Positions 1-44,672 of a stretch of 64,000 nt of DNA are shown here, one piece after another; within the stretch, counting starts at the first letter, position 1, and the number at the start of each line of letters is the position of its first letter. The DNA comes from Candidatus Binataceae bacterium (GTDB lineage: Bacteria > Desulfobacterota > Binatia > Binatales > Binataceae). The DNA is taken from NCBI GenBank assembly GCA_963803045.1, contig CAWDLC010000019.1, positions 17,542-81,541 on the forward strand, given 5' to 3'. The translations under genes were made by a program, and so were the position numbers. A model generated the notes under the pieces. The model was not told where the DNA came from. It did not search any database and worked only from the letters and a program-made list of their open reading frames with translations.

Positions 1-999
1 GCTTCACTTTCGCCGTCGAGGGTGAACCCACGGTCGACTTGATTGCCCGGGGAGTGCGAGCAGGCGCGCGAGGAACAGTGCGACGTGGTCGTCGCCATCG
101 GCGGAGGCAGCGTCATCGACGCGGGAAAAGCCATTGCCGCGCTGCTCACCAATCCCGGCGAGTTGATGGATTATTTGGAGGTGGTGGGCAAGGGGAATGC
201 CCTCCAGAATCCTGCCGCGCCGTTCATCGCCGTGCCCACCACGGCGGGGACGGGGTCAGAGGTCACGCGCAATGCGGTGTTGGGCGTGCCCGCGCGGCAA
301 GTGAAAGTCAGCCTGCGCAGCCCGTTCCTTCTGCCGCGCCTGGCGGTGGTGGACCCGGAACTGACTCTCGGCCTGCCGCCGGCGATTACCGCGCGCACCG
401 GACTCGACGCGCTGACGCAGTTGATTGAGGCCTATGTTTCGATCCGCTCGAACCCCGTGACCGACGGATTCTGCGTGCAGGGAATTCCGCTCGCGGCGCG
501 TTCGCTGCGCCGGGCGTTTCACCAGGGGCATGACCCGGAAGCGCGGCGCGATATGTCGCTCGCGGCGCTGTTCAGCGGATTGGCGCTCGCCAACGCCGGC
601 TTGGGCGTCGTCCACGGATTTGCCGCTCCCCTGGGCGGAAGGTTTCCCGCGCCGCACGGAGCGATTTGCGCGGCCATCCTGCCCTATGGGATGGAAATCA
701 ACCTGCGCGCCCTGCGTGCTCGCGCGCCCCAAAGCGATGCGCTGCGCCGTTACCAGGAGGTGGCGCGCATGCTCACGGGGCGGCCCGACGCCACCGCCGA
801 GGACGGAATTGCGTGGACGCGGGAGATTTGCCGGGAACTCGAAATCCCGCCCCTCAAGGCCTATGGGATCGGGGAACAAGACGTTGCCGATCGCTCATCG
901 CGGAAGCAGCCAAGGCGAGCAGCATGAAAGGGAATCCTCTGGCGCTCACGCCGGAGGAGCTGGCGCGAAGTACTGGACATTGTCGATTGCCGAGTGTGA
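1..999 (+). CDS. iron-containing (group III) alcohol dehydrogenase, 5'-partial, with two compensating frame changes near 890 and 965
   Basis: The frame-1 translation (ORF 43..927) has the Fe-ADH motifs VVVAIGGGSVIDAGKAIA and VPTTAGTGSEVT. The C-terminus continues in frame 3 (LIAEAAKASSMKGNPLALTPEELAR, inside ORF 666..1094), then returns to frame 1 (EVLDIVDCRV) and stops at TGA 997-999. The gene is open at the window start. Confidence 0.8.
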
Positions 1000-1162
1000 C
1001 GATTTCCGGTTTCGCGCTACAGAGCGTTTCTCACAGAGGTCGCAGAATGGCTCCAGAGCGCGAGAAACCCCGCTCTTCTCCGTGTCCTCTGTGAGCACTC
1101 CGTGGCCTCTGTGTGAAACGCCCTTAAGCCGGAAAACTGGGGGCTAGGCGAAACTTTCCCGT

Positions 1163-2105
1163 CTATTCCCGTTTCATTTGCAGATTCTGTAACGCTTCCG
1201 CCTCCGTCTTGGCGTTCAGTGCCTTTGCGAGTGCTTCGACCGTCGGCTTGAGCTCCCGGCCTTCTGCCAAGTAAAGTCTGATACATCAGTGGATAATACT
1301 TCGTGTAGGTCTCATCAAAGGCCAGACCGGCATTGTTGTTGGCGGCCAGACACCGGTTGAACGATTTCGGCTCGGGGCTGATGGCCGTGCACGCCTGGTG
1401 AATTTCCTCGAAAGCCTGCTGCTTTTGCTCCAGCGCGTCGTGCTCGGAAATCTGGCCGGCGCGCGCGGCGGCGTACAACTGGCTCAATTGGGCGTGATAG
1501 CGATTCACGATTTCAGCTTTGCGGGCGAACAGTTCCGGCTCGCGCTGAAGGTTTTGATAGACCTCCGAATTCTCGCCAAACTTCTGCCGCGCCACTTCGG
1601 CGGCGGTGAGAAATCCGATCAGGGTTGCAGACGCTTCGCCCCAGGCTGCCGGCAGTTTGCGTAATTCCTTATTGGCGTGGAAATCCTCGTGCGGAACGAC
1701 CACCAGAAAGCGTTCCACCGACTCGTGCGCCAAGGAGGCGGAGACGGGCGTCTTGCCGCTGGCGTTGGCGTCCATGGGGTAAAAGAACACATCGTATTTT
1801 TGCGTGTCGAGCGGGCAGCCCGCCTTCGTTCCCTGCAACAGTTGCAGCTCCTGATAGGAATCGGGGAGTTCGAGTTTGCCGGTGTAGTAGCAGCGATAAG
1901 CGACGGCGGATTCCGCTGACTCCTTGTGGAAGTTCTTCGTCCGGCGGAAACCCAGTTTCTTTTCCAAACGCTTGACGGCGCTGACCAGGTCTTTGCGGTC
2001 CGCAGCGTTGGGATTTTGGGGCGTGTCGGTGGCAGCAGCAAGGCCCGCAAGCAGCGCCACGAGCACGAGGGTCAACAAAAAGAGCCATGGCGTGGATATC
2101 TTCAC
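1163..2105 (-). CDS. secreted HExxH metallopeptidase-like protein (putative aminopeptidase family), one frame change near 1280
   Basis: ORF 1017..2105 opens with a signal peptide (MKISTPWLFLLTLVLVALLAGLAAA) and contains VVPHEDFH (HExxH). After ...TKYYPLMYQ a protein-like tail (LYLAEGRELKPTVEALAKALNAKTEAEALQNLQMKRE*) lies in another frame and stops at 1163-1165. The family name is from memory only. Confidence 0.5.
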
Positions 2106-2235
2106 ACTTTCATTGTAAACGTATTTCCCGCGGCCGGAGTAGCGACCGTAGCACGGCGCGGCGGAGCCGCATGCTCAGCTTGACTTGTACATACGATTAC
2201 GCTATATTATATATACAACACTTGAGGGTAGGCAC

Positions 2236-2424
2236 ATGGCGGTGACACTCACATCGATAAGGCTGGATACCCATCTGGCGGACGAAGCCCGAAAAGTTCT
2301 CGGCGTGAAATCCCGGACGGAGGCGGTGCATGTAGCGCTCCGGGAGATTGTGGCGCTGAAGCGATTCAAGGACTTGATGAGGAAGCACGCGGGAAAGCTC
2401 TCGTTCGCGGGTCACGGTGAGTAA
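2236..2424 (+). CDS. vapB: type II antitoxin, VapB-like
   Basis: A 62-aa product (MAVTLTSIRLDTHLADEARKVLGVKSRTEAVHVALREIV...) starts at ATG 2236. Its end overlaps the downstream PIN gene start by 8 nt, which is classic TA architecture. Confidence 0.75.
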   Translation: MAVTLTSIRLDTHLADEARKVLGVKSRTEAVHVALREIVALKRFKDLMRKHAGKLSFAGHGE

Positions 2425-2824
2425 CCTCGTCATCTTCGACACTTCGATCTTCATCGATCATCTGCGCACCGGATGTCATCAGCAGCGAATCGAATCGCTG
2501 ACCGGTCTCATCCGAACGTCTTCCGTGGTTTTGGCGGAGTTGTGGCGTGGCGCGACGGAACCGGCGGAGCGGGAGTTCCTGCGAGCGCTGGAGAAGAACC
2601 ATCGCATCCTGACGCCCACGGAAAATAATTGGCTGGAGTCTGGCCGGCTGCTGGGGCAAATTTACGCGGATAAAGGCTTCACGCCCGACAAACTGCGCGA
2701 CCTGCATTTCGACGTGCTCATCGCGCTCACCGCGCGGTCTCACGGCGCCCGGCTGATCACCTCCAACCGCGCCGATTTTGAAATGATCAGCGCCTACCGG
2801 AAATTTCAATTGGAAATATGGTAG
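2417..2824 (+). CDS. vapC: PIN-domain ribonuclease toxin VapC
   Basis: A 135-aa ORF with a GTG start. The N-terminal LVIFDTSIFIDHL carries the PIN acidic residue, and ...DVLIALTARSHGARLITSNRADFE is a typical VapC C-terminal motif. Confidence 0.85.
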   Translation: MSNLVIFDTSIFIDHLRTGCHQQRIESLTGLIRTSSVVLAELWRGATEPAEREFLRALEKNHRILTPTENNWLESGRLLGQIYADKGFTPDKLRDLHFDVLIALTARSHGARLITSNRADFEMISAYRKFQLEIW

Positions 2825-2847
2825 CTCCAGCCCCGGCAGTAAAAAGA

Positions 2848-2904
2848 GCAACAAAAAGGTTGCGTTTTCCGCACTGCCGCGCTAATCTGCAACCTGGAGG
2901 TTGC
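2848..2904 (+). promoter_or_regulatory. two GCAAC(C)-N-GGTTGC palindromes upstream of the SRPBCC/ArsR pair (candidate ArsR operator)
   Basis: GCAACaaaaagGTTGC (2848-2863, followed by GTTTTCC) and GCAACCtggaGGTTGC (2889-2904) both occur here. The second overlaps the GGAGG ribosome-binding site 10 nt before ATG 2911. ArsR/SmtB repressors typically bind such dyads. Confidence 0.3.
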
Positions 2905-2910
2905 CTAACA

Positions 2911-3364
2911 ATGGATCAATCGAATTGAAAAGCGTATTGAACTCAAGGCGCCGGTTTCGCGGGTCTGGCGGGCGCTGACGGATTACCGTGAGTTCGGCGA
3001 GTGGTTTCGCGTGAAACTGGAGGGCCCGTTCGTGCCGGGCCAGGTCTCGCGCGGCCATATTACCTACCCTGGCTACGAGCACGTCAAATGGGAGGCCGTG
3101 GTGCAGAAGATGGAGCCCGAACGGCTCTTTTCCTTCACCTGGCACCCTTATTCCGTCGATCCCAAAATAGATTACTCGAAGGAGACGCCCACGCTCGTCG
3201 AATTCCGGCTGGAGAAGACCGCGACCGGCACACTGCTTCTGCTCACGGAGTCCGGTTTCGACAAAATCCCCAGCGACCGCCGCCTGGAAGCATTCCGCAT
3301 GAATGACGGCGGCTGGACAGAGCAAATGAAGAATATTGAGAGCTATGTCGCACAAAAGCCGTAG
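2911..3364 (+). CDS. SRPBCC (AHSA1/START-like) family protein; start region has a one-base frame problem
   Basis: ORF 3011..3364, plus the same frame upstream, reads NRIEKRIELKAPVSRVWRALTDYREFGEWFRVKLEG...FRMNDGGWTEQMKNIESY. That frame is closed by TAA at 2906-2908 and has no start codon. The only ATG with an RBS (2911) is one base out of frame. Confidence 0.7.
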
Positions 3365-3692
3365 CAGCATGACCGCCAAACGGCAGGCTCATGCATCCGT
3401 CTTTGCCGCGCTGGGCGACGAGACGCGGCTATCGCTGGTGGCGAAGCTTTGCCGCGGGCAGCCGCGTTCGATCTCTCAGCTCACCGCGGGCTCCAAGCTT
3501 ACCCGGCAGGCGATTACCAAGCATCTTCGCGTGTTGGAGAGGGCGGAAATCGTGCACAGCGTCCGTACGGGCCGCGAGAGCCGGTTTGAACTCGATCCGG
3601 AGCCGATGGAAGAACTCAAGAAATACCTCGATCTCGTCTCCGCGCAGTGGGATCAGGCCCTGTCCAGGCTAAAATCGTTCGTCGAGGGTTGA
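3345..3692 (+). CDS. ArsR/SmtB family transcriptional regulator
   Basis: The winged-helix signature is FAALGDETRLSLVAKLCRGQPRSISQLTAGSKLTRQAITKHLRVLERAEIVHSVRTGRESRFEL. The start is ATG 3345 (alternatives 3336 or 3369). It overlaps the end of the SRPBCC gene, a common pairing. Confidence 0.85.
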   Translation: MSHKSRSSMTAKRQAHASVFAALGDETRLSLVAKLCRGQPRSISQLTAGSKLTRQAITKHLRVLERAEIVHSVRTGRESRFELDPEPMEELKKYLDLVSAQWDQALSRLKSFVEG

Positions 3693-4022
3693 GTGCTTGT
3701 GCCCTTTGATCTCGTCGTAAACGATGATCGACATCACGACGAGAACCCACACGGGGAAGACTCCCATTCCCGGAATGGCTTCGACGATCAGCCCTGGCAA
3801 AAGGGCCCACCTTCGACCCAGAATCAGGAACAGCAGGCCTGCCGTTCCCAGGTCAAGCACCCACTGGATGGGCGGAGCAAATTCGGTCCACATGGATAAG
3901 AAATCCGAGATCGCAGCCACGCCAAAAGCGATGGCAAATCTGGCGCGGGAGACACGTTTGATCGGAACAATCTCCTGCCCCGGGCTGACCACGACAGGCC
4001 GATTTTCGGTTTTCATCAACAT
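3669..4022 (-). CDS. small hypothetical membrane protein
   Basis: A 117-aa product starts at ATG 4022 (MLMKTENRP...). It has two or three hydrophobic spans (FAIAFGVAAISDFL, LGTAGLLFLILG, GVFPVWVLVVMSIIVY). I do not recognise a family. Confidence 0.45.
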   Translation of the reverse strand: MLMKTENRPVVVSPGQEIVPIKRVSRARFAIAFGVAAISDFLSMWTEFAPPIQWVLDLGTAGLLFLILGRRWALLPGLIVEAIPGMGVFPVWVLVVMSIIVYDEIKGHKHSTLDERF

Positions 4023-4375
4023 GGTGTCCCCCGCCCTGATCGCATCTTCTTCAAGCCCATCGTGCCATGTTCGCGCGCGATCCGCAAGCGAGCGCGATGG
4101 CCCGACCAAGTCTGTAAAAATTGGTGACGTTGCAAGTAGATCTGGATGCCGAGGCTCTGAGCGGCAACTGTTGCCTTTTGCTCGCCGCGACTCTGCGCGG
4201 TTCACTACTGCTATCAGCGTTCGAACGGGAAGGCTTCCGCACTCCATATTTTGTTGGATGTCGCCGCGTCAGGTGGGCGGGGTGAGCAGTCCGCGTGCAC
4301 TTCCTCTTCTGGTGGGCAAGGCGCTCTCTAAGTACAATCAAGTCCGGCTCGCGCGCTGCCTGAGTTCCTAAACCC

Positions 4376-5245
4376 ATGTCAAAACGGTTGATCTCCATGC
4401 GTAGTGTCCGCCTTCTTATTCTTCTGCTAATCGTTCTCACCGTGGCTTTGCCCGCGCCCGCGCAGAACCCTTGGGAGCGCTTGCCAGCCACTCCTGCGCT
4501 ACCCAAGCCGGAGCGCAGCGGCACCGTCCCGGTGAACGGCATCCGCATGTGGTACGCGGTATTTGGCCACGGGTCTCCGGTGATTCTCCTGCACGGCGGG
4601 CTTGCCAACTCGAACTATTGGGGACTTCAGATTCCCGGCGCTTGCCCCACACTTTGAAGTGATCGTGGTTGACAGCCGCGGTCATGGCCGCAGCACTCGC
4701 GATGGCGAGCCGATCACCTATCACCTGATGGCGATGGATGTGCTTGCGCTGATGGATGCTCTGCACATCCCCAAAGCCGCGCTGGTGGGTTGGAGCGATG
4801 GCGCGATCATCGGCCTCGACATCGCCATCCATCATCCCGAGCGGTTAACCAAGCTCTTTGCCTTCGGAGCGAATTCCAACCTCTCCGGCGTGAAAAGCAG
4901 CGAGGGCAGCGCCATCGTTTGCCGCCTACCAGAGCCGCACCCGGGAAGAATACCGCAAGCTCTCGCCGACGCCTGCGGAGTTCAATGCGTTCCGCGAGCA
5001 ATTGAACAAGATGTGGACTACGCGAGCCGAACTTTTCCGATGCTCAACTCCGCAGCATCACTATGCCCACCTGGATCGTGGATGGCGACCGCGACGAGAT
5101 CATCAAACGCGAAGATACCGACCACATGGCGAGTCTCATCCCCGGCGCCGGCGAACTCATCCTGCCCCGCACCAGCCATTTCGCGTTTCTTCAGGACCCG
5201 AAACAATTCAATGAAGCCTTGCTGCACTTTCTTGGCAGCGAGTAA
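4376..5245 (+). CDS. alpha/beta-fold hydrolase with signal peptide; three +1 frame changes (about 4632, 4912, 5025)
   Basis: Four pieces in successive frames join cleanly. They are: MSKRL...GSPVILLHGGLANSNYWGLQIP; then ALAPHFEVIVVDSRGHGRST...LVGWSDGAIIGL (nucleophile elbow GWSDG); then PSFAAYQSRTREEYRKLSPTPAEFNAFREQLNKMW; then EPNFSDAQLRSITMPTWIVDGDRDEII...SHFAFLQDPKQFNEALLHFLGSE*. Confidence 0.8.
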
Positions 5246-5299
5246 CCACGATGATGGGCAGACCCGGGCCACTTCGCTTCCGGCAAACGGGCGTGCCTT

Positions 5300-5399
5300 G
5301 TAGCGCGGGCATCCTGCCCGCTGGGGCGTGGGCATCCTGCCCGCGCACATCGCGCGAGCGGGACGCTCCCGCCGACAGCGGGCAAGATGCCCGCGCTAC
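5300..5399. repeat. REP-like cluster of four short GC-rich hairpins bounded by a 22-bp inverted repeat
   Basis: The hairpins are GCGGGCAtccTGCCCGC (5306-5322), GTGGGCAtccTGCCCGC (5328-5344), GCGGGAcgcTCCCGC (5358-5372) and GCGGGCAagaTGCCCGC (5378-5394). The outer 22-mers at 5300-5321 and 5378-5399 are reverse complements with one mismatch. The cluster lies in the intergenic region between the hydrolase and mazE. Confidence 0.6.
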
Positions 5400-5478
5400 G
5401 CCCCTTTCGCTGCTATGTCGCACACCCCCGGCAAACCGTCCGCTTGCAGCCCGGTGGACATGTGGTTATACTCAGGGT

Positions 5479-6312: not shown

Positions 6313-7229
6313 TTGGAAGAACTAACGACAGCATACTACGAAAACCTCTTTCGCCTTCGGTACGTCGAGTCTAAGGGTGATGTCTTTCAGGACTTCTTCT
6401 CAACCGTCATGGAAATGAGATATCCCGGCGATTTTGTTCGCGTCCGCCCTTGGGGGAACCTCGGAGACCACAAAAACGACGGCTATCTCGCTTCCAAGCG
6501 ACACCTCTTTCAGTGTTATGCACCCCGCGAAATGAAGATGACGGAATGCAAGGCCAAGATCAATAAGGATTTCGCCGGAGCGCTTCCATATTGGAAGGAT
6601 TATTTCGACAAGTGGTTTTTTACGCACAACAATATCGATGGCCTTCCAGCGGACATTCTGAAACTCCTTCTCGATCTTAGTACGGCACATGCCCCCGTGT
6701 GCGCTGCCCAGTGGGGGTATGGTGAGCTGCGGCAGGAATTCAAGCAACTATCTGAGGTAGACATCTCGAAGCTTCTCGGTCCTGCGCCAAGCCGGAAGGA
6801 GATGGTAGATTTGCGGCTTGAGGATGTGAAAAGGTTGCTGGAGCACGTCGCTCTTCTGCCCGAGCCGCGAGCGGTCGATGTAAGACTCGTCCCCGCTGAC
6901 AAACTCGAATATAACCAGTTGTCGCAAGCCGTCGGGACATTGTTGAAGGCCGGCATGACGCGTTCTGAGCTCGTGAAAAAATACCTCCGTGGTATTGCCG
7001 ATCAAACCAGTTACGATCGCACGGCCGCCGCGTTCCGATTGCGCTATCAGGAGTTGAAAGGAGAGGCCGCGCCCCAGACGATATTTTCGCCGGGCTGCAG
7101 AGGTTCATTGCCGGTGCGGGCGTCGCGAGCCCATCACATCAAGCGGCAACACTTGCCATTCTGGCGTTTTTCTTTGAGGCGTGCGAGATTTTTGAGCGGC
7201 CGCCCGAATTGACGGGTACCTTGTCATGA
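6313..7229 (+). CDS. ABC-3C-like system, first (effector-type) component; one frame change near 7070
   Basis: This is ORF 6313..7212 with a TTG start. The N-terminal region has RPWGNLGDHKNDGYLASKRHLFQCYAP (a GD-x3-DG...Q-x-[K/Y] pattern like Mrr/PD-(D/E)xK nucleases). The C-terminal half is helical. The true tail (RAPDDIFAGLQRFIAGAGVASPSHQAATLAILAFFFEACEIFERPPELTGTLS*) is in another frame and ends with the TGA of an ATGA overlap at 7226-7229. Confidence 0.55.
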
Positions 7230-7477
7230 TTCTTCCTACCAAAGGTCTGGCGCTTGACCGGGCGCTTCTCTCCGTGGGCGCAGAAGTTCTTCGACGACTG
7301 GACAGGCCCAAGACCGTATCACGGCTATGGGATCAAGTGCGGCACCCTAAGAGCAGCCTTCTCGAATCAGTTCCGTATGAATGGTTTCTTCATTCGCTCG
7401 ACTTGTTGTATCTGTGCGGCGCGATCGATTTTGAAGATGGCCAAATTCGCCGGACTCACCGGAGGGCGACCCGATGA
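7226..7477 (+). CDS. ABC-3C-like system, middle component (small helical protein)
   Basis: An 83-aa ORF (MILPTKGLALDRALLSVGAEVLRRLDRPKTVSRLWDQV...) has ATGA overlaps with both neighbours. Its size and its position between the effector and the ATPase fit the 'middle component'. Confidence 0.55.
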   Translation: MILPTKGLALDRALLSVGAEVLRRLDRPKTVSRLWDQVRHPKSSLLESVPYEWFLHSLDLLYLCGAIDFEDGQIRRTHRRATR

Positions 7478-9260
7478 TTCATTGTGTGTTTAGCTCCCTC
7501 AAGACATTCAAAACTCTGCACTTTGCGAGGGGACTCAACATCCTACTTTCAGATAAAATGCCCGACGCAACCGAACAACAGACTCGTAATCGCACGGGGA
7601 AGACAAGCTTCATTGAATTGGTTCATTTCATTTGTGGGGGAAACTGCCGCGCGGACTCCATATTCAGGGCACCAGAACTTATACCGTCGTCGTATGGGTT
7701 AGAGTTTGATGTCTTCGACCAAGTCGTGCAAGTTTCACGCTCCGGCTCTGAGCCATCGAAAATCATCTTGGAGCGTGGTGATGCCACCAAATGGCCGAAG
7801 CAACCGCAGGCCGAGGATGACCCACCCCGCAAGGTCATAAAGAACACGGATTGGCGGACAGTATTGGGACGTGGGTTTTTCGCCATTGATGATGAATCTG
7901 ACTCCGAAGAAGATGAGGGAAGCGGACGACGGCCCACTTTCCGTTCTCTGTTTTCATACTTCGTACGGCGGGAGAACAGCGGAGGGACATGCGAGATCCC
8001 GCTCAACAATACCGGCATGAACAATCGGTGACGACTCAAATCGCGTTGGCATTTCTAATCGGCTTCGACTGGACGATCGCTCAACAGTGGGAAGCGGTAA
8101 GGCAAAAGGGAGAAGCAGATTCGCGAATTGAAGCGAATTGTCGGCCAAGGTGTATTGACGGACGTGCTTGACTCAGCGGCTTCGCTACGGTCTCGTCTTG
8201 TTGTCGCGGACGAGAAGCTGAAGCGCATTATCAGGAATTTATCATCTTTTCGGGTCCACGAACAATATCACGCGTTCGAGCAGGAAGCTTCCGGGATTAC
8301 GCGGGAGATTGCTGGGGTTTCCGATGAAAACACTCTTGATCGCGCCTACATTGCGAACCTCGAAGCCGCGATGGAGGCGGAATCGCCGCCCGCTCCAGAC
8401 GATCTGATTCGTCTTTATGAAGAGGCGGGCATTGTGCTTCCTGACCTGGTGCGGCGACGGGATCGAGGATGTTCTGGTTTTCCACGATTCCGTAATGCGC
8501 AACCGCCGCAGCTACTTGCAAGGGGAATACTCGGCAGCTTCGGAGCGGGTGAAGAATCGCGAGGCGCGGCGGGAAGGACTTGATCAGCGGCGGTCCCAGC
8601 TGATGGAAATGTTGAAGTCACATGGTGCACTAGAACAATTCATAGCCCTACAGGCAGAGCAAGGGAGACTCCAAGGCGAGGTTGAGGCTCTCCGCCGCAG
8701 GTACGAGGCGGCAGCCCAACTAGAGTCAACAAGCTCTTCCCTCGAATCTGAACGTGTCAACTTGGTGGCGAGGCTACGGCAAGAGTTTGAGGAAAGAAGC
8801 GCTGTTCTTGACGATGCGATCAGAGGATTCAGCGCCATCGTTGAGGAACTGTACGGAGAGTCCGGGCGCATCGAGTTCCACGCCAAAAACAATGGGCCGG
8901 AGGTTCGAATCGCTATACCCGGTGATCGGAGTCGGGGTATCGGAAATATGGAAATATTTTGCTTCGACATGATGCTTCAGTTAATGTGTGCCAGGCAGAA
9001 AATCGGGCCGGGTTTTTTGATCCATGACAGCCATCTTTTCGATGGAGTCGATCCGCGTCAGACGGCTCGAAGCCTTGGCCGTCGGCGCACGGCTGGCCGA
9101 GAAAATCGGATTTCAATATATCGTCACCCTGAACTCAGATGTCTTGGCTGAGTTGTCATCAGCGGATTTCAATGCAGATAGGTACTTGGTATCCCAACGT
9201 CTCACGGATGCCACAGAGGACGGAGGCCTTTTTGGAATCCGCTTTGAACCTCCCGGCATC
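7474..9260 (+). CDS. ABC-3C-like system, coiled-coil ABC/SMC-type ATPase (DUF2326/YydD-like); four frame changes (about 7990, 8110, 8455, 9070); 3' end uncertain
   Basis: ORF pieces 7474..8031, 7989..8171, 8128..8583, 8417..9151 and 9024..9542 join into about 590 aa. The protein has a P-loop ([18 protein letters not shown]) and a long coiled coil ([50 protein letters not shown]). It then has [19 protein letters not shown], a Walker B/D-loop ([14 protein letters not shown]) and QYIVTLNSD...GGLFGIRFE. The last frame has no stop before 9542. An indel in the T5 run at 9229-9233 would give a stop at 9244-9246. Confidence 0.65.
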
Positions 9261-11009: not shown

Positions 11010-11021
11010 GATTCGTCTCTT

Positions 11022-11217: not shown

Positions 11218-12050
11218 TTATGCCCCCTGCGCCGGTGCCAGCGCCGCCGCGGCTGCGGCGGCGGCCTTGGCGGCAGCTGCGGCCTCGGCGGCGGCCGCAG
11301 CCTTGGCCGCGTCCGCCTCGCGCTCCGCCGCTCCGCGCATCGGCATCCCGAGCGCGCGGAGCAGCGTCAGCCCCTCGAAGTCACTGCGCGCCGTAGTCGT
11401 GATCGAAATTGTCAATCCCTTCACCTTCTCGACCTTGTCGAGGTTGAGTTCGGGAAAAATCGTATGTTCCTTCAGCCCGAGCGAATAGTTGCCGCGGCCG
11501 TCGAACGCCTTGTCGCTGACGCCGCGGAAGTCGCGCACGCGCGGCAGCGAGATATTCACCAGCCGGTCGAAAAACTCCCACATCTTTTCGCGCCGCAGCG
11601 TTACCATCACGCCAATCGGCATCCCCTGGCGCAGCTTGAAATTCGAAATCGCCTTGCGCGCGCGCGTCAACACCGGCTTCTGCCCGGCGATCACTTGACA
11701 GCTCTTCGAGCGCGGAGTCGAGAATTTTGACGTTGTCGCGCGCTTCCTGGAGCGCCATGTTAATCGTGATCTTCTCAAGGCGCGGCACCCGCATCCGGTT
11801 GTCTATCTTGAGCTCGCGCATCAGGGCCGGCGCGATCTCATTGTCGAACCGAACCGCAGGCGGGCCGGCAGCTTGGGCTCGGGCGGCAGCGGCGCCGCAG
11901 CCGCGGCCTTGGCTTGTTCGGCCGCCTGCTTGCTCTGAGCCTGGCGGGCCTTGCCTTCGCGCTTGGCCTTGGCCGCCTGATCGGACTTGGCGGTCTGTTC
12001 GGACTTGGCGGCTGCTCGGCCTTGTCGGGCTTTCCCTTTTTGTCGGCCAT
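11218..12050 (-). CDS. rplE: 50S ribosomal protein L5 with low-complexity N- and C-terminal extensions; three frame changes (about 12010, 11853, 11698)
   Basis: The conserved core is [36 protein letters not shown]...[46 protein letters not shown]. It is split over ORFs 11381..11821 and 11218..11778. The only start is ATG 12050 (TGATG overlap with the rplX stop), which opens [36 protein letters not shown].... Confidence 0.85.
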
Positions 12051-12382
12051 CAGTCGTTACCTATCACTTCGCCGCAGCGGCGGCAGACCCGGCTCTTGGC
12101 GCCGTCAGCGGCAACCTTGACCCCGACCCTGACCGGAGCGTTGCAGCGATCGCAAAAAAACATGACGTTCGAGATGGCGATGGGCGCTTCCTTCTCGACG
12201 ATACCGCCGGGGCTCTGCGCGCCGCGCGGCTTGCTGTGACGCTTGACGATATTGAGCCGCTCGACGATGACGCGTCCGCGCTCCGGCAGCACGCGCATCA
12301 CCTTGCCGGTCTTGCCCCGGTCGCGGCCGGTGACGACCATCACGATGTCATTCTTCTTGATTCTGTATTTCGCCGACGCCAT
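12050..12382 (-). CDS. rplX: 50S ribosomal protein L24 (with C-terminal Cys4 ribbon)
   Basis: It has the KOW motif IKKNDIVMVVTGRDRGKTGKV. The C-terminus carries CDRC-x19-CRRC, as I recall for Thermus L24. The start is ATG 12382 (GTG 12385 is an alternative). Confidence 0.9.
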   Translation of the reverse strand: MASAKYRIKKNDIVMVVTGRDRGKTGKVMRVLPERGRVIVERLNIVKRHSKPRGAQSPGGIVEKEAPIAISNVMFFCDRCNAPVRVGVKVAADGAKSRVCRRCGEVIGND

Positions 12383-12751
12383 CACAGCACCTCCGGCGCG
12401 AGCGAGATGATCTTCAGAAACTTTTTCGCGCGCAGCTCGCGGGCCACCGGTCCAAAGATGCGGGTGCCGACCGGCTCGTGATCCTTGTCGAGCAGCACCG
12501 CCGAGTTGCCGTCAAAGCGGATGTAACTGCCGTCGTCGCGGCTGATTTCCTTGGCCGTTGCGCACGATAACCGCGCGCGACACGTCGCCCTTTTTGACCT
12601 TGGCGTTGGGAATCGCCTCTTTGACCGCGACCACGATCACGTCGCCGACCGACGCGTATCGGCGCTTGGAGCCGCCAAGCACCTTGATACACATCACTTT
12701 GCGGGCGCCCGAGTTATCGGCGACATCCAGAACCGTTTGTACCTGTACCAT
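12382..12751 (-). CDS. rplN: 50S ribosomal protein L14; one frame change near 12555
   Basis: ORF 12512..12751 gives [27 protein letters not shown]...SRAVIVR. The remainder ([57 protein letters not shown]) is in another frame and stops at 12382-12384. Confidence 0.9.
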
Positions 12752-16235: not shown

Positions 16236-16891
16236 TTCGTTTCTCCGGCAAATCGGGCTTCAATTGCCTTGGCGGTCTGGCTGGTCATCACGAGTTCCCG
16301 GTAATTGAGCACGTCGTAAACGTTAAGCCCTTCGACGGCGAGCACCTTGTGCGCGGCGAGGTTGCGCGCGGCGAGAAAAAACTTGCCATCGCCTTCGCCC
16401 AGCACTATCAGCGCGTGCTCGAGGCCGAGCTTGTCGAGCGCGGCCTTGGCGGCTTTGGTTTTCGGCTCGGAAAGATCGAGCGACTCGACGACGAACAGCT
16501 TGCCGTTGCGGGCGCGATCGGAAATCGCGAGGCAGAGCGCGGCGCGCCACGCCTTTTTCGGCATTTTGTACGAATAGTCGCGCGGCTGCGGGCCGAAGAT
16601 GGTTCCGCCGTGACGCCATAGCGGGGATCGCGTCGATCCTGCGCGCGCGCGTCCGGTTCCCTTCTGCCGCCACGGCTTGCGGCCGCCGCCGGAGATGAGT
16701 CCCTTGGTCTTGGTGGACGCCGTTCCGGCGCGCCGATTGGCAAGCTGCATCCGGACCGCCTCGTGCAGCAGCGACGGATCGCCGTCGCGGCCGAAAACTG
16801 TGCCGGCGACTTCGAGCTCGCCGATTTTCTCATGGGCGGCCGAGTACAGCGGCAGCTTGACCGGCAATAGATTTTCGGTCCGCTCAGGCAT
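16232..16891 (-). CDS. rplD: 50S ribosomal protein L4
   Basis: A 219-aa intact ORF with GGGRKPWRQKGTGRARAGSTRSPLWRHGGTIFGP. Confidence 0.95.
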   Translation of the reverse strand: MPERTENLLPVKLPLYSAAHEKIGELEVAGTVFGRDGDPSLLHEAVRMQLANRRAGTASTKTKGLISGGGRKPWRQKGTGRARAGSTRSPLWRHGGTIFGPQPRDYSYKMPKKAWRAALCLAISDRARNGKLFVVESLDLSEPKTKAAKAALDKLGLEHALIVLGEGDGKFFLAARNLAAHKVLAVEGLNVYDVLNYRELVMTSQTAKAIEARFAGETK

Positions 16892-17554
16892 TGGCCACCT
16901 TCACATTCGCGCGGCGGCGCGGGCGGGCCGCGTGATGAACGACGAGCAAGGCTCCGTCGGGTCCGGGCACCGCGCCCGACACGACGACTGCGTTGTCGTC
17001 GGGAAGTATCTCGAGCACCTCGAGGTTCAGGATCGAGGCAGTCTCATTGCCCATCTGCCCCGCCATCCTCATCCCTTTGCGCACGCGTCCGGGATACGAG
17101 CGGTTACCGATCGATCCGCCGTGGCGGAAATACTCGTGGGTGCCGTGGGAGCCGGGGAAGCCGGAAAAATGGTGGCGCTTGATGACGCCGGCGTAGCCGT
17201 GGCCCTTGGAGACGCCGGTCACATCGACCTGGTCGCCGACCTTGAACACGTCGGCAGCGGCAATCGGCTGTCCGAGCTTCAACTCGCCTTCGCCGCGGCG
17301 TTCGAACTCGCCCGATCTCGATTCCGGCCGCGATGTTCGGCGCGCGCGAAATGGCCGCGCTCGCCGCCGGTCACGCGGCTGAGCTTCTTCTTGCCAAAGG
17401 TGACCTGCACGGCTTCGTAGCCGTCGGTCGCCGCGGTCTTCAACTGGGTGACGGTGCATGGACCGAGCGTCAACACGGTGGCGGCGCGCACGCGGCCGGC
17501 GGCGTCGGTCATCTGGGTCATCCCGATTTTCTTTCCAATCAATCCGGTCAGCAT
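16884..17554 (-). CDS. rplC: 50S ribosomal protein L3; at least one (probably two) frame changes near 17300-17335
   Basis: The N-terminus comes from ORF 17279..17554 (MLTGLIGKKIGMTQMTD...GHFARA). The C-terminus comes from ORF 16884..17678 (EFERRGEGELKLGQ...VDVTGVSKGHGYAGVIKRHHFSG...HGTHEYFRHGGSIG). A short NIAAGIEIG piece fits the third frame. Confidence 0.9.
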
Positions 17555-17944: not shown

Positions 17945-19146
<1,202 letters not shown>

Positions 19147-19184: not shown

Positions 19185-21280
19185 TTATGCACGCGCGCGC
19201 GAATCGCCGCCTTCGGCGTCGCGCGCCGTCAACTCCTCAAAAATATTTCGCGGCACGGGTTCATACGCGCCGAACTGCATGGTGTAAGTTGCGCGGCCCT
19301 GGGTCATCGAGCGCAGCCGCGTGGCGTAACCGAACATGGTGGCGAGCGGGACGCGGGCCTCGATGACCTGCGCGCCGGCGCGATTTTCCATGTCGAGAAT
19401 CTTGCCGCGCCGCCCGCTGAGATCGCCGATCACCTCGCCCATGAACTCCTGCGGGGTGACGACCTCGACCTCCATGACGGGCTCGAGCAGAATCGGGTCG
19501 GCCTTTTCGCAGCATTCCTTGAACGCCATCGAGCCGGCGATCTTAAACGCGAGTTCCGACGAGTCCACCTCATGGTACTTGCCGTCGAGCACGATGGCCT
19601 TGATATCGACCATCGGATAGCCGGCGACGACGCCGTTTTCCATCGCCTCTTTGACGCCGTCTTCGATCGACGGAATGAAATTGCGCGGAATCGATCCGCC
19701 CTTGGTGCCGTCCTCGAACTCAAAGCCGGAGCCCTTGGGGAGCGGCTCGATGCGCAGCTCGACGATGCCGTATTGGCCGTGGCCGCCGCTCTGGCGGACG
19801 AACTTGCCCTCGGCTTCGGAGGCGCGCCTGATGGTCTCGCGATAGGCGACCTGCGGCTTGCCGATATTGGCGTCAACTTTGAACTCGCGCAGCATGCGAT
19901 CGACGATGATCTCGAGATGCAACTCGCCCATGCCGGCGATCAGGGTCTGCGAGGTTTCCTTGTTGACGCTGACGCGGAACGACGGGTCTTCCTTGGCGAG
20001 CTTCTGGAGCGCCTCGGCGAGCTTCTCCTGGTCGGCCTTGGTCTTGGGCTCGATGGCAATCTGGATGACGGGCGCGGGAAACTCGATGGACTCGAGCACG
20101 ATGGGCGCGGCCGGATCGCATAGCGTGTCGCCGGTGTTGGTATCGCGCAGGCCGACGGCGCAAATCTCGCCGGCGTAAACCTCGTTAAGCTCCTCGCGCT
20201 TGTTCGCATGCATCTTGAACATGCCGGCCGACGCGTTCGCGCTTGCCGCGCGTCGAGTTGAGCACCGAGGTGCCGGTCTCGAGCTTGCCCGAGTACAGCC
20301 GCAGGAAGGTCAGCGTGCCGAGGTACGGGTCGGTCATTATCTTGAAGGCGAGCGCGGAGAACGGTGCGTCGTCGCGCGGCCATCGCTCTTCGATCTTGTC
20401 GCCCGACCTTGCCGACGACCGGCGGCAGGTCCAGCGGCGACGGCAGGTAGTCGACCACCGCGTCGAGCATCGGCTGCACGCCCTTGTTGCGGAAGGCGGA
20501 GCCGAGAATCACCGGCGTAATCGCCATCTTGAGTGTGGCGGCGCGAATCGCGGCGCGAATCTGGTCGGGCTCGGGCGCCTTGCCTTCGAGATAAAGCTCC
20601 ATGATGTGCTCGTCGTGATCGGCGAGCGTCTCGATCATCTTGTCGCGGTATCCCGCGGCCTGCTCCTTCAAGTCGGCCGGGATCCCTTCGACGCGGTAGC
20701 TCGCGCCGAGCCGATCCTCGTCCCAAATCAGCGCCTTGCGATCGATCAGATCGACCAGCCCGGTGAACTTTTCTTCGGCGCCGATCGGCAGATGCAGCAG
20801 CAGCGGCGTCGCCTTGAGCTTGTCGCGCATCTCCTGCACGACGCGCTCGAACTCCGCGCCGACGCGATCCATCTTGTTGATAAATGCAACCCGCGGCACG
20901 CGGTACTTGTCGGCCTGACGCCAGACGGTTTCCGACTGCGGCTCGACGCCGCCGACCGCGCAGAACACCGCGACCGCGCCATCGAGCACGCGCAGCGAGC
21001 GCTCGACTTCAATGGTGAAATCGACGTGTCCCGGCGTGTCGATAATATTGATGCGGTTGTCGCGCCAGAAGCAGGTGGTCGCCGCCGACGTGATCGTGAT
21101 GCCGCGCTCCTGCTCCTGCACCATCCAGTCCATGGTCGCGGTGCCTTCGTGCACCTCGCCGATCTTGTAGTTGATGCCGGTGTAGAAGAGCACGCGCTCG
21201 GTGGTGGTGGTTTTGCCGGCATCGATGTGCGCCATGATGCCGATATTGCGCACCCGTTCTATTGGTGTCTGACGAGCCAT
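19185..21280 (-). CDS. fusA: elongation factor G; two frame changes (about 20403 and 20228)
   Basis: The N-terminal piece is ORF 19940..21280 ([20 protein letters not shown]...DTPGHVDF...NKMDR). A middle piece ([46 protein letters not shown]) is in a third frame. The C-terminal piece is ORF 19185..20222 ([19 protein letters not shown]...). Confidence 0.95.
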
Positions 21281-22345: not shown

Positions 22346-30772
<8,427 letters not shown>

Positions 30773-36755: not shown

Positions 36756-36815
36756 GCTGATGCCGGACAGATTGCGGCATTTCGGTGATTGCCGGCATCG
36801 CCAACTGGTTGACCC

Positions 36816-37958: not shown

Positions 37959-38027
37959 TCCGCGACATTTGCAGCTTCGGGTCCGGCCGCGCGTCGCGAC
38001 ACCATAGCGCGATTATCCCCTTAGGCG

Positions 38028-39074: not shown

Positions 39075-40265
39075 ATGAGACTAGCAATCCCGGGATTTGC
39101 CATTATCGACCGCTACGTCGCCCGCGAAGTGCTGGCGCCGTTCGCGGTCGACGTCGGCCTGCTGACCTTCGCGCTGGTCACGGGCAAGTTGCTCAAGCTG
39201 ATGGACATGGTCGTCAATCACGGCGTCAGCCTCGGCGAGGTGATGGGGATCATGGGGTACATCATGCCGGCCTTTTTGGAACTCACGTTTCCGATGGCGG
39301 TGCTGCTCGGGGTGTTGATGGGATTCGGGCGGATGTCGAGCGACCAGGAGATGACCGCGGCGCGCGCCTGCGGCGTCAGCTTGTACCGGCTGGCGGTGCC
39401 CGTGATGATGGTGGCGCTTTGCGTGTACGCGATTTCGAGTTACTTCGCGTTCTCGCTGAGGCCGTGGGCGAATTCCAATCTGCGCAACAAGCTCTACGAA
39501 CTCAGCCAGACCCGGACCAGCGCCGGGCTGAAGGAAAAAGTCTTCAACAGCAATTTCCCCGGGCTGGTCGTTTATGTCGACGAGATGTCGGATACCGACT
39601 CCAGCATGAAGGGCGTCATGATCTCGGACGCGCGCGATCCGCACAACCAGAACACGATAATCGCCAAGCATGGAATGATGCTGCCCGACGCGCACAACAA
39701 GTCGATCACACTGCGGCTGTTCGACGGTTCGATCTTCGGCGTCGAGCCCGCCGACAACGCGACTCACATGACCAGCTTCAAGACCTACGATCTCGGCGTC
39801 AGCCCCGAGGCGGCGCTGGACGTGAGCGAGCAGGATCCGGGCGAAATGAAGTACTCGCAACTGCGCGCTGACATCAAGGCGGCGCGCGGCAAAGGGAAAC
39901 CGGACTACGCCGCCGAGACCGAGATGGCGGGCAAGTTTACCGTCCCGTTCGCCACGATGCTGTTCGCGCTGCTCGGCATCTCGCTCGGGCTCAAACCGGC
40001 GCGCGGCGGCCATTCGGAGCGCTTCGGCGTCAGCGTCGCGCTGTTCTTTCTCTATTACTCGCTGATGCGCGTGGGCGAGACGCTGGCGCAGCGCGGCAAG
40101 CTCGACGCGTGGGTCGCGATGAGCATCCCCGACATCGTATTCATGGCGCTGGCGTTCTGGTTCTTCTATCGCGCCGCGTCCGACAAGGGCGACCAGGGCC
40201 GCGGCCCCGGCGACATCATCTGGGATCTGGTCGAGCGCTACGAACGCAGCAGGCAGGCCGCATGA
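39075..40265 (+). CDS. lptF: LPS export ABC transporter permease LptF
   Basis: A 396-aa intact ORF in the YjgP/YjgQ family (IIDRYVAREVLAPF...). It is paired with the downstream lptG through an ATGA overlap. Confidence 0.85.
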   Translation: MRLAIPGFAIIDRYVAREVLAPFAVDVGLLTFALVTGKLLKLMDMVVNHGVSLGEVMGIMGYIMPAFLELTFPMAVLLGVLMGFGRMSSDQEMTAARACGVSLYRLAVPVMMVALCVYAISSYFAFSLRPWANSNLRNKLYELSQTRTSAGLKEKVFNSNFPGLVVYVDEMSDTDSSMKGVMISDARDPHNQNTIIAKHGMMLPDAHNKSITLRLFDGSIFGVEPADNATHMTSFKTYDLGVSPEAALDVSEQDPGEMKYSQLRADIKAARGKGKPDYAAETEMAGKFTVPFATMLFALLGISLGLKPARGGHSERFGVSVALFFLYYSLMRVGETLAQRGKLDAWVAMSIPDIVFMALAFWFFYRAASDKGDQGRGPGDIIWDLVERYERSRQAA

Positions 40266-41360
40266 GACTTCGACCGCGCCTTTCGCCGGTGATGGACCGC
40301 TTCATCGCGGGCCAGTTCTTCGGCCCGTTCATGGTTTGCCTGGCTGCCTTCACTGCGGCCTATCTGCTCGGCGACATGTTCGATCGATTCGACGATTTGA
40401 TCCGCTACGGCGGGCTGGGGTTATTGGGGCTGGAGTACTTCGCGCTCAAGCTGCCGCTGATCGTCTCGCAGGTTCTGCCGGTAGCGTGCCTGGCCGGCGT
40501 GCTGCTGGGCTTCGCGCTGCTCAATCGATCGGGAGAGGTGCTGGCCTGCCAGCAACTCGGCATCAGCCGGTTCGAGATGGCGGTGCCGGTGCTGATAGTC
40601 GCGGTGTTGATTTCGGGTTTTGATTTTATCATCAGCGAAACAGTTGTTCCCGCCGCGACGCGCCAGGCGAAGTATATCTACGCGGTGGAACTCAAGAAGC
40701 ACCAGCTCAAGGCGGTATTCGCCAACCGGCGCATCTGGGTGCGCGTGCGCGACGGATTCATTTCGGCCGACAGCTACGACCAGAAAAACGTCGCAGCTCG
40801 CCGGAATTACCCACTATCAACTCGACGACGATTTCGGCCTCAAGGATCTCGAGCATGCGTCGAGCGCGAAATGGAACGGTCACGAATGGGTTGAGACCGG
40901 GTTGAATTCGTTCCAGATCGCCGAGGGCGGCGCGGTGACCAAGACTGACACGCGCCTCGAGCTTGGACTGACGCCTGCCGATTTCGGCCTGCTGCGCTTC
41001 GACCCGGAGGAGTTCAGCTTGTGGGAACTCGACCGCTACATCGCCGATCTGCGCAGCAAGGGACTCGACCCGGGCGGCTACGTAGTCGATCGCGATCTGA
41101 AGTACGCGATGCCGCTGGCGTGCCTGATAATGGCCGCGCTCGGGATGGCGCTCAGCCTCGATCCGCTGCCGCGCAACCTGAGTCTGGGCCGCAGCTTCGG
41201 GTTGGCAATCGTGATCGGCTTCGCCTACTGGACGTCGCTCGGAATCACGTCCGCGCTGGGTCGTTCGGGGCTGCTGCCCGCGGTGATCGCCGCCTGGATT
41301 CCGAATTTCATGTTCGCGATGATCGCGATCGCGATATTCCTGTTCGGCGAAGAACGCTGA
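40262..41360 (+). CDS. lptG: LPS export ABC transporter permease LptG; one frame change in an A5 run at 40784-40788
   Basis: The N-terminus lies in the ORF 40109..40894 frame (MRLRPRLSPVMDRFIAGQFFGPF...). The C-terminus is in ORF 40620..41360 (TSQLAGITHYQLDDDFGL...LPAVIAAWIPNFMFAMIAIAIFLFGEER). Confidence 0.85.
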
Positions 41361-42513: not shown

Positions 42514-43173
42514 ATGGTTTATCGATGGCGCGACAAATCGCGACTGAATCTGGTCTTGATTCGCGCCATCGCGATCACCGCATTGGGAGTCCTGGCGATC
42601 GCATCTTCGAGCTACGCGGCCGGCGCCAACCGCGCCGCATCCGACGCGGTCGTCGCCGAGGCGGAAAAGTTGATCATGCAGGCCGGCCACGAGGATCCTG
42701 TCGATACCAGGAAAATCCACACGGCGATGGACAAGCTGCATGAGGCGCTGCGCATCGATCCTCGAAACGACTCAGCGTACGTGGACCTCGGCTTCTGCTA
42801 CGGCGTGCTGCGCGACGGCGCAACCGCAATCGACATGTACCACACTGCGACCGAGCTGAATCCGTCGGGCAACAACTTCATCGAGCTGGCCGACGTGTAT
42901 CTGCGCGTCGGCGACTCTGAGGATGCCCTGCTCGCCGCCAACGCCGGAATAGTCAAGGATCCTGCCAACGCGCGGCTCTACAACGCCAAGGGCATGGCGC
43001 TGAACGATTTGCAGCGCTTCGCCGAAGCCGAAGAAGCCTGGGAGAAGGCCCTCCAGCTCAATCCTAATCTGAGAGTCGCGCAGCTAAATCTCGACGCACT
43101 CAACAGCGGCTCAAGCGGCCGCGGCAGTATCGTCAAGCATCCGCAACAACCGCCGGCAAGCACGACGCGCTAG
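42514..43173 (+). CDS. TPR-repeat protein with N-terminal signal/anchor
   Basis: The start is the internal ATG 42514 of ORF 42463..43173. It has LIRAIAITALGVLAIASSSYA followed by TPR-like repeats (ALRIDPRNDSAYVDLGFCY, ATELNPSGNNFIELADVY, KDPANARLYNAKGMAL, ALQLNPNL). Confidence 0.7.
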   Translation: MVYRWRDKSRLNLVLIRAIAITALGVLAIASSSYAAGANRAASDAVVAEAEKLIMQAGHEDPVDTRKIHTAMDKLHEALRIDPRNDSAYVDLGFCYGVLRDGATAIDMYHTATELNPSGNNFIELADVYLRVGDSEDALLAANAGIVKDPANARLYNAKGMALNDLQRFAEAEEAWEKALQLNPNLRVAQLNLDALNSGSSGRGSIVKHPQQPPASTTR

Positions 43174-43505
43174 CCGCCAGTGATCGGACGCTCGGGCTCC
43201 GCCACGCAATATGCGCATCGGCAGAGGTTCCTGAGTTGGGACATCGTGTAGATAGTCTCGTGGCCGTCAGCCCATCCGATAAACACTGCCGCTTCGCCCA
43301 GCCGCGAAAGCTGCCGCATGCGGATGCTCGCGGGCGGCACGTCACCGTTCACGTTGCCCTTGCACGCGTCGCACGGGCATCCGCGGCGCAAATTTTCCAG
43401 CGGGAAAATGCTGTCGTGACCGTCGACCCATTGCACGCCAACGGCGTAGCGCCCGACTTCGTGAAGCCCTTTGATCTTCGGAGTCTTTGACTTGATAAGC
43501 GCCAT
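43170..43505 (-). CDS. DUF971 domain protein (gamma-butyrobetaine hydroxylase N-terminal-like)
   Basis: A 111-aa ORF with two repeats of the W.DGH....... pattern (VQWVDGHDSIFPLENLRRGCPCDAC and IGWADGHETIYTMSQLRNLCRCAYC). Confidence 0.65.
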   Translation of the reverse strand: MALIKSKTPKIKGLHEVGRYAVGVQWVDGHDSIFPLENLRRGCPCDACKGNVNGDVPPASIRMRQLSRLGEAAVFIGWADGHETIYTMSQLRNLCRCAYCVAEPERPITGG

Positions 43506-43685
43506 CGGTGCAGCCTTTGCGTGAGTATATCTCCGGCGCCGACGGCTGTGGAGACCACGCGATGGCGAAGGACTCGAAGAAGTTTGCGCTCTCGATGCAC
43601 TCGGTGATCACATGGATTCCGCTGAGATTAGAATCGACGAACTGAGCCGCGCGCTCAGCGCCTAACCGCGAGCGCCAGCGGCGAG

Positions 43686-44672
43686 TTGCTCGCCAAGCAG
43701 CCTCATTGGGGCGACGCGATTGCGTGCGACGGCCTCGTTTACGCCGCGCGCGCTCTCAAGACCAGCGCCCCGATCGAGGCGGCCGAGCGATGGTTCGCGC
43801 CAAAGCTCGCGGCGGGTCCGCGCACCAACGGATGGTTCTGGTTCTGGGCGGCCGAAGCGCTGCCGGCACTCGACCTGCACCTGAAGACGAATGATCCGCG
43901 CTACCTGGAATATGCACGCGCGATCGTCGGCTTCATGGAAAATTCAGCCGCGCGAACCCCCGACGGCGCTTTCGTCCCGCATCCACCGGCGCTCGAAGTG
44001 TGGATCGACGTCTGCTACTTCACCGCGCCCGCGATCGCATTACTCGGCCGAATCTCAGGCGACCCCGCGATGCTCGAGCGTGCGCTGGATCAGATGATCG
44101 TTCATCACGATCATCTGGCCGACCCCGGAAGCCGGCTTTTCTGGCATGTCGCCTACCTTGACCGAAAATCGCATTCGCCGTGTTTGTGGGCGCGCGGCAA
44201 CAGCTGGTTTTCGGTCGCGGCGCCGCAAGTGCTGGCCGAAATCGAGGCGGCCGGCCCGCTTCAACCGCTCGCTACAAAGGTTGACAAGATTGGCAAGGCG
44301 CTGGCGCTTCAACTCAATAAAGTCGCCTCGTTGCAGGACGAGTCCGGCCTGTGGCACACCGTGATCGATCGTGACGATTCGTATCTCGAGGCGTCGGCGG
44401 CGGCCGGATTTGCGCTCGCACTCGGCCGCGCTATTGGGACCCGGCTGCCCGGTCTCGACGATGCTCGCGCACGCCACGCGTACTCGCGCGCGCTTGGCGC
44501 GATTTGCTCGAAGATAGACTCGCACGGCGCGTTCACGGGCGTGTCGCAGCAAACGCCGCCGGGGGACTTTGCCTTTTACAATTCGATCGAAATCGGAACT
44601 GCGCCGTTCGCGACCGGCGTATGCATGATGGCGCTCAGCGAGGCGGTTGAGACATGGCAAACAAGAAAGTAG
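43686..44672 (+). CDS. glycoside hydrolase family 88/105-like (unsaturated glucuronyl/rhamnogalacturonyl hydrolase)
   Basis: It has ...WIDVCYFTAPAIALLG...LFWHVAYLD......WARGNSWFSVA...SGLWHTVIDRDDSYLEASAAAGFA. TTG 43686 is a weak start. An ATG at 43613 (MDSAEIRIDELSRALSA) in another frame suggests one more frame change. Confidence 0.6.
   Translation: MLAKQPHWGDAIACDGLVYAARALKTSAPIEAAERWFAPKLAAGPRTNGWFWFWAAEALPALDLHLKTNDPRYLEYARAIVGFMENSAARTPDGAFVPHPPALEVWIDVCYFTAPAIALLGRISGDPAMLERALDQMIVHHDHLADPGSRLFWHVAYLDRKSHSPCLWARGNSWFSVAAPQVLAEIEAAGPLQPLATKVDKIGKALALQLNKVASLQDESGLWHTVIDRDDSYLEASAAAGFALALGRAIGTRLPGLDDARARHAYSRALGAICSKIDSHGAFTGVSQQTPPGDFAFYNSIEIGTAPFATGVCMMALSEAVETWQTRK

Follow-up and report, generated by a model that had tools for sequence, protein, structure and literature searches.

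The window analysed here is a stretch of 64,000 nucleotides (G000:C19:17542-81541, G+C ~62%) from the genome of a Candidatus Binataceae bacterium. It contains genes for ribosomal proteins, elongation factors and RNA polymerase as well as an accessory region in its first 9.4 kb, and in many of these genes the coding frame changes within a conserved protein. We confirm 32 such events, 26 insertions and 6 deletions, see Table 1. DNA alignments place 21 of them within a few bases, and the other 11 are placed by homologous proteins or profile models that change frame.

Genomes compared and calling of events

The source genome, G000, is metagenome-assembled and comprises 3.51 Mb in 50 contigs, with a marker completeness of 81.5% and a contamination of 3.4%; the 12 same-genus genomes drawn for comparison have a completeness of 85-98%, most of them of 92-98%. 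Five of these (G004, G006, G007, G008 and G009) could be aligned to the window, and the region 9337-44685 is syntenic with all five. G008 is the closest relative, with a DNA identity to the window of 92-93%. G009, G004 and G007 reach ~90-92% across the ribosomal and polymerase stretch and less in the flanking pieces, and G006 ~86%. For two genes of the window, the closest protein clusters are named in the sources as "Terriglobia" or "Acidobacteriota" bacterium, which are labels only.

Events were called by clustering the gaps of pairwise alignments within 12 bases and comparing the net length, a frame change being a net difference that is not a multiple of three. Strict per-position matching of gaps across relatives was tried and dropped in favour of this clustering; it gave only 3 shared events, as the placement of gaps varies between pairwise alignments. 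The final placement of the events comes from local multiple alignments. The open reading frames (ORFs) of G008 were selected by strand and by the G+C content at third codon positions (GC3); choosing the longest ORF had given antisense ORFs. Genes were named with NCBIfam equivalog models, whose curated cut-offs are exceeded by nine of nine intact G008 orthologues.

Frame changes in the ribosomal, elongation factor and polymerase genes

Between 9.3 and 44.7 kb, 20 frame-changing clusters are private to the window and common to the comparisons with all covering relatives (3 to 5), and a 21st, at 18588-18609, is found with four of the five. These 21 events are 18 insertions (17 of one base and one of two) and 3 deletions. 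They fall in rpoB (5), rplE and rpoC (3 each), rplC, tuf, fusA and moaA (2 each), and rplN and lptG (1 each).

Comparing the reassembled proteins with their homologues, a check that a preliminary description of the window had called for, gives a consistent picture, i.e., the frame segments continue along the homologue in another frame. For example, a tblastn search with the RpoB of the closest relative runs through frames -1, -2, -3 and -1 in succession. The longer segments of tuf, fusA, rpoC, rpoB, rplN, rplC and lptG mostly have 89-99% protein identity to G008 (97-99% in the two outer segments of tuf), and the short or overlapping pieces between breaks have 75-84%. For rplE, one tblastn run spanning the out-of-frame stretch has 73% identity. 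The MoaA of G008 gave no piece above the 70% identity filter when searched against the window, so that both moaA events come from DNA alignments alone. No second copy of rpoB or rpoC was found in G000.

Table 1. Interrupted genes of the window with the position and size of their frame changes
Gene	Position	Strand	Frame changes	Comparison
Fe-ADH, iron-containing alcohol dehydrogenase (5' end beyond window, 3' end approximate)	3..992	+	~57 (+1); ~885-891 (-1 or +2)	
Predicted aminopeptidase	1166..2105	-	~1269-1279 (+1)	5/6 homologues: frame -3 to -1 at 1279
Alpha/beta hydrolase	4397..5242	+	~4636 (+1); 4900-4916 (+1); 5023 (+1)	
Defence-cassette gene 1 (CTD10, PADLOC PDC-M68A)	6313..7226	+	~7053-7080 (-1 or +2)	
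Defence-cassette ATPase (DUF2326, PADLOC PDC-M68B)	7474..9245	+	~7977 (-1 or +2); 8104-8132 (+1); 8460 (+1); 9069-9079 (+1)	
rplE (L5, terminal extensions)	11218..12050	-	12006-12 (-1); 11854 (-1); 11694-99 (+1, compound)	5/5 relatives; G008 orthologue scores as L5
rplN (L14)	12382..12751	-	12558-60 (+1)	5/5 relatives on net +1; tblastn frames -1/-2; TIGR01067 on G008 orthologue
rplC (L3)	16884..17554	-	17338-45 (+1); 17316-19 (+1)	5/5 relatives; tblastn frame -1 then -3
tuf (EF-Tu)	17945..19146	-	18609 (+1); 18429-32 (+1)	4/5 and 5/5 relatives; tblastn three frames
fusA (EF-G)	19185..21280	-	20402-04 (+1, CC to CCC); 20223 (+1)	5/5 relatives; tblastn three frames
rpoC	22346..26620	-	26596-600 (+1); 26100-03 (+1); 25133-35 (+1)	5/5 relatives; tblastn three frames, 96-98% identity
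rpoB	26642..30772	-	29540-44 (+1); 27290-95 (+2); 27201 (+1); 27165-66 (+1); 26838-41 (+1)	5/5 relatives; tblastn four pieces
lptG	40109..41360	+	40789-91 (+1)	4/4 relatives; tblastn frame 2 then 3; TIGR04408 on G008 orthologue
moaA	41388..42419	-	41849 (+1); 41465 (-1)	3/3 relatives; TIGR02666 on G008 orthologue

Three features of these genes are recorded here in their own right. The L5 protein of the genus has 277 amino acids (aa; window 11218-12050, L022:17503-18336) and the L5 model spans residues 63-239 only, i.e., there are extensions at both the N- and the C-terminus, the former appearing rich in Lys and Ala as judged from one short stretch. In fusA (window 19501-21000), private substitutions occupy 40 of 1179 conserved columns (3.4%) vs an average of ~1.4%, which could point to further errors or to divergence or recombination in this segment. 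Antisense to rpoC there are long ORFs, of 948 aa in the window (22322-25168, plus strand) and of 1788 aa in G008 (C42:21889-27255), which we regard as antisense frames with few stops, as expected where the DNA is rich in G+C.

Frame changes in the accessory region

A DNA search with positions 1-9400 in 40 genomes of the genus found a single match, the hydrolase, in 12 of the 40 and at ~70% identity. As there is almost no DNA match in the genus, the first 9.4 kb were examined at the protein level, with homologous proteins and profile models. Judged from the direction of the frame steps, eight of the 11 events found here are +1 and three are -1 (or +2).

In Fe-ADH, six homologues (91-94% identity) align by tblastn in frames 3, 1 and 3, and the Pfam Fe-ADH and ADH_Fe_C matches fall in the frame of 43-924. 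The homologues of the aminopeptidase carry PF10023; the aminopeptidase ORF itself has no match in Pfam or NCBIfam. The hydrolase orthologues of the genus have ~291-304 aa (one ORF is called at 455 aa), and seven of ten align as four pieces in frames 2, 3, 1 and 2, the remaining three as two or three overlapping pieces; positions 20-102 and 194-245 of Abhydrolase_1 are matched in different frames.

The first gene of the defence cassette is split across two frames in both of its profiles, at CTD10 positions 2-92 and 86-134 and at PDC-M68A positions 114-207 and 204-252. In the ATPase, the 581 positions of PDC-M68B are covered by five ORF pieces (1-160, 161-211, 202-320, 321-526 and 523-581) in frames 1, 3, 1, 2 and 3, and the DUF2326 match is broken at ~9070. 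The cassette (6313-9245) is of defence type and has three genes, encoding the CTD10 protein (PDC-M68A), a middle component MC6 and the DUF2326 ATPase (PDC-M68B); it adjoins VapB/PIN and MazF-like genes (2152-2821 and 5664-6050).

The preliminary description had placed frame changes at 33 positions, and 30 of these are recovered, mostly within ~10 bases; 7990 and 18597 are off by ~12-16. The other three are 965, 2915 and ~43650. After position 965, in Fe-ADH, only ~9 residues remain, too short for a test. At 2915, the start of an SRPBCC gene, there is no in-frame start ahead of the domain, as seen in the window sequence alone, and at ~43650, possibly the start of a GH88 gene, the N-terminus is divergent. 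Two events lie beyond that list, the second +1 in rplC and the one at ~57 in Fe-ADH. The events had also been described as single-base frame changes, which is too simple, as insertions dominate (26 vs 6), one is of two bases, and several are compound with adjacent substitutions.

Distribution within the window

That the frame changes concentrate in conserved and essential genes, as had been proposed, does not hold. The accessory region has 11 events in 1-9.4 kb (~1.2 per kb) vs 18 in the 21 kb of 9.7-30.8 kb (~0.86 per kb), and the apparent concentration looks like ascertainment.

The uneven density noted earlier is real, with error-rich zones at 1-30 and 40.7-41.9 kb and clean zones at 30.8-40.7 and 44.7-54.0 kb. 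In the first clean zone there is no private frame change where relatives align; for 35.6-38.0 kb, to which no relative aligns, the screen was by Pfam alone. This piece (35582-38021) corresponds to ~2.4 kb that are missing from G008 at that place, and it encodes a TetR regulator, a SpoIIAA-like protein and a MacB/FtsX-type permease. In the second clean zone, no private coding frame change occurs in the 6567 bases of 44733-50112 and 52695-53992 that are covered by at least three of up to 16 relatives; the two pieces show shared length differences at gene borders only. Between 50 and 64 kb the Pfam domains are whole, each inside a single ORF.

Two genes towards the end of the window are incomplete in another way. 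In kdpA, a frame change suspected from an N-terminal cut in the Pfam match was ruled out, and there is an in-frame stop instead: positions 61214-61216 read TGA vs TGG (Trp) in two relatives (L057 and L058), and the rest of the 605-aa protein stays in one frame at 78-79% identity. The TGA may stem from a substitution error in this assembly, or it may be a genuine nonsense mutation. At 53679-54054, an acyl-CoA dehydrogenase is reduced to its C-terminal 104 residues, the G008 orthologue having 388 aa. Synteny with the relatives stops at ~53993 and the G+C content falls to 0.56 in 54-56 kb; this boundary marks a rearrangement, the edge of an island or a misjoin.

The events are private to the assembly and patchy across the genome

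The same test applied to each genome in turn gives 20 private frame-changing events in 31.5 kb for the window and none in 40.6 kb for G008, an assembly of 100 contigs. The other relatives have 3 (G007), 5 (G004), 9 (G009) and 13 (G006, the most divergent). In G009, an assembly of 6 contigs, this 40-kb region contains 8 +1 insertions that are private to G009 (loci L013-L016, cf. window 24-39 kb), several of them in rpoB and rpoC.

For a genome-wide view, 187 kb of G000 on 18 contigs were aligned to 20 stretches of G008. Of the 326 gap clusters 227 are frame-changing, and a crude rule based on ORFs and GC3 classes 47 of them as broken in G000 and open in G008 vs 9 in the reverse direction, with 38 changes of +1 and 6 of -1 among the 47. 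The same rule gives 25 clusters open in both and 146 in neither, mostly intergenic or in close pairs. The density of broken frames ranges from 0 (C41, 11.2 kb; C17; C26) to 0.90 per kb in C22 and 1.17 per kb in C47, and in C47 19 of 20 private events lie inside 2.6 kb. The hot zones are at 24.7-27.3 kb in C47 and at 28.3-31.4 kb in C22. Thus, the errors form kilobase-scale patches throughout the assembly and are not tied to essential genes. A complete 16S gene lies inside a 77-kb contig of G000, which is a hint of long reads.

Form of the insertions

For each +1 insertion, we sought the window base whose removal best fits the allele sets of the relatives. Random bases in the same regions served as the null, which was repeated within 150 bases of the real events. 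An insertion is said to be of two-allele form when the removable base is not the same as its neighbour and relatives show each of the two as an allele at that one column. A second data set, C47:20001-37000 and C22:21501-32000 with five relatives each, was drawn and tested after the idea had formed; there are 20 private frame changes in the first region and 18 in the second, of which 30 are +1.

Pure extension of a homopolymer is seen in 1 of 17 insertions in the window (p = 0.0025) and in 2 of 28 in the second set (p = 0.00025), the null being 38-39%. Two known alleles stand side by side in 8 of 17 (p = 0.0007) and 11 of 28 (p = 0.0014), with a null of 13-15%; the insertions of G009 are of this form in five of eight cases. 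The two-allele sites of the window include 12558-60, 17316-17, 26100-03, 26596-600, 26838-41, 27165-66 and 40789-91. Private substitutions, too, are more frequent near the indels, with 12 in 349 conserved columns at a distance of up to 12 bases vs 319 in 22386 elsewhere (2.4-fold, p = 0.005).

The earlier placing of the offending bases in short homopolymers does not hold in general, one pure run extension among the 17 window insertions comparing with 39% expected. Among the five examples that had been offered, the three-base run at 20402-04 alone has truly been lengthened by the extra base. At 18426-28 and 26591-94 the relatives have runs just as long, and at 40784-88 the A5 run owes its greater length to a substitution only; the extra base is found a few bases away from each of these three runs. 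The example at 29540-42 is ambiguous.

Comparison with public runs

No public run was found with at least half of the words sampled from window 20000-29999; the highest share, 0.32, comes from soil, peat and wetland metagenomes. Contigs from four runs of this kind, which represent related populations and not the source, were compared over 11000-30000. At no fewer than nine of the 18 events between 11 and 30 kb, as counted among 12 of 128 indel rows, contigs of between one and four runs are without the window's extra base or have the one that it is missing (11693/11698, 12011, 18429, 18609, 25137, 26102, 26600, 27166 and 27201). This adds to the evidence from the relatives and is not a decisive read test. 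Compared by eye with the depth of the four runs, 9 of the 18 events fall in the 14 deepest of 30 bins, i.e., there is no association, contig depth being a poor measure.

Origin of the frame changes

The events are private to one assembly, the frame segments are conserved, G009 has different insertions in these genes, and the insertions have a form for which there is no mutational rationale. We therefore conclude that the frame changes arose in the assembled consensus and are not mutations of the organism, with a probability of about 0.93. The real genes of the organism are very probably intact and should be read as such, and biologically there is nothing new here. The systematic indel error proposed in the preliminary description thus stands as far as an error of the consensus is concerned, in view of the private events, the essential genes hit, the genome-wide patches and the low completeness. 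It does not stand in the form of simple single-base slips in homopolymers.

A decaying population or a non-functional copy, in which the frameshifts are real and many genes, essential ones included, are pseudogenes, is very improbable. The kdpA stop, which is independent of any frame change, and the truncated acyl-CoA dehydrogenase at 53679-53990 are what one could cite for it. However, rpoB, rpoC, tuf, fusA and three ribosomal protein genes are all broken, no second copy of rpoB or rpoC was found, and the high protein identity of most long segments is unexpected under relaxed selection. With the exception of the kdpA stop, the checked genes are interrupted by frame changes alone, the two-allele insertions have no known mutational basis, and G009 carries its own, different insertions in the very same genes.

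Programmed recoding, by ribosomal frameshifting or transcriptional slippage, would explain why the frames continue so seamlessly, and nothing else was found in its favour. Programmed frameshift sites are conserved among relatives, e.g., in prfB and dnaX. Here, more than 30 sites are spread over 15 unrelated genes, the 3-5 same-genus genomes compared read straight through at the 21 sites covered by DNA alignments, and a single site lies in a base run, of only three bases, so that this explanation has a negligible chance of being correct. It is likewise extremely improbable that the extra bases are truly present in the DNA of the living population and that full-length RNA polymerase, EF-Tu, EF-G and ribosomal proteins are made through some site-unspecific correction of the frame.

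Given that the frame changes are consensus errors, their source has to be considered. Because two-allele insertions are in excess and base runs are avoided, we find it fairly probable that a good part of the errors comes from merging the reads or contigs of close strains into one consensus. We suggest that the consensus could have been assembled from several close strains at once, either out of noisy long reads or by merging assemblies. Where these strains differ by a single base, one allele would then have been inserted and the other kept, instead of choosing one of them, and the remaining errors may be plain noise in thinly covered patches.

Plain noise of long reads at low coverage, with random insertions in thin or unpolished patches and no mixture of strains, would also make the frame changes artefacts, and it is a possible though rather unlikely origin for all of them. 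The kilobase-scale patchiness speaks for it, as do the insertions, over half of the total, that lack the two-allele form. The excess of insertions also resembles that of raw PacBio continuous reads, given as ~8% insertions vs 3% deletions in a passage of the proovframe preprint (10.1101/2021.08.23.457338). However, random insertions should extend a neighbouring base in ~38% of cases and mimic the two-allele form in 13-15%, and the observed numbers are 3 of 45 and 19 of 45, respectively.

Several points weigh against the explanation by consensus error and mixed strains. The two-allele form is absent from 9 of 17 and 17 of 28 insertions, and therefore at least one further error process must be at work. 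The two-allele idea arose from the window data, so only the second data set is independent, and the mixed-strain mechanism is derived from statistics alone; the pattern is also unlike the classical homopolymer indels of Nanopore data. The genome-wide rule leaves 146 of 227 frame-changing clusters unassigned. Finally, the source reads were not found among the public runs (best share 0.32).

Consequences for the genome record

G000 is the genome of its species in a reference collection, and the record needs correction. Scaling the ~0.25 broken frames per aligned kb to 3.5 Mb gives several hundred false frameshifts, which is an extrapolation and not a measurement. Such errors fragment gene calls, depress completeness and invite false readings as pseudogenes or decayed elements; a frameshift in G000 or G009, wherever it lies, is no evidence that a gene has been lost. 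At least one more genome of the genus is affected, with errors of this kind in rpoB and rpoC of G009. Since base runs are avoided and strain-variable sites favoured, a correction aimed at homopolymers would miss these errors, and reference-guided or frame-aware correction would be needed.

The two-allele insertion may be a systematic and recognisable signature of consensus building from mixed strains. If this is true, it would affect several species-representative genomes of the genus, and it could be used to flag and correct records without access to the reads. No description of this form was found in a limited search covering parts of the literature, and it may well be in print.

Comparison with known assembly artefacts

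Frameshifting indels are a known problem of long-read consensus sequences. Passages of PMC9262707 describe them as located mainly in homopolymers and note that bins of low coverage need polishing, and the review PMC13543314 in part describes them likewise for metagenomes of low depth. The frame changes in G000 resemble the Nanopore consensus indels treated in parts of PMC9262707 and in protein-length tests of the IDEEL type: gene calls are fragmented, the effect is worse in bins of low coverage, completeness is lowered, and the indels are absent from the short-read assemblies of relatives. They differ from the homopolymer errors described there in that pure homopolymer insertions are here below chance (3 of 45), insertions outnumber deletions by ~4:1, and many events lie at strain-variable sites.

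With the PacBio continuous reads characterised in the proovframe preprint, they share the predominance of insertions over deletions and the lack of dependence on homopolymers. However, the figures given in that part of the preprint are for raw reads and not for a consensus, and they predict no excess at variable sites. A further likeness is to collapsed-strain microdiversity, in which co-existing close strains disturb an assembly into a single consensus, as described in parts of PMC9262707 and PMC9426551. In those accounts, as far as the relevant passages go, the outcome is fragmentation, while in G000 two alleles are found side by side as an insertion.

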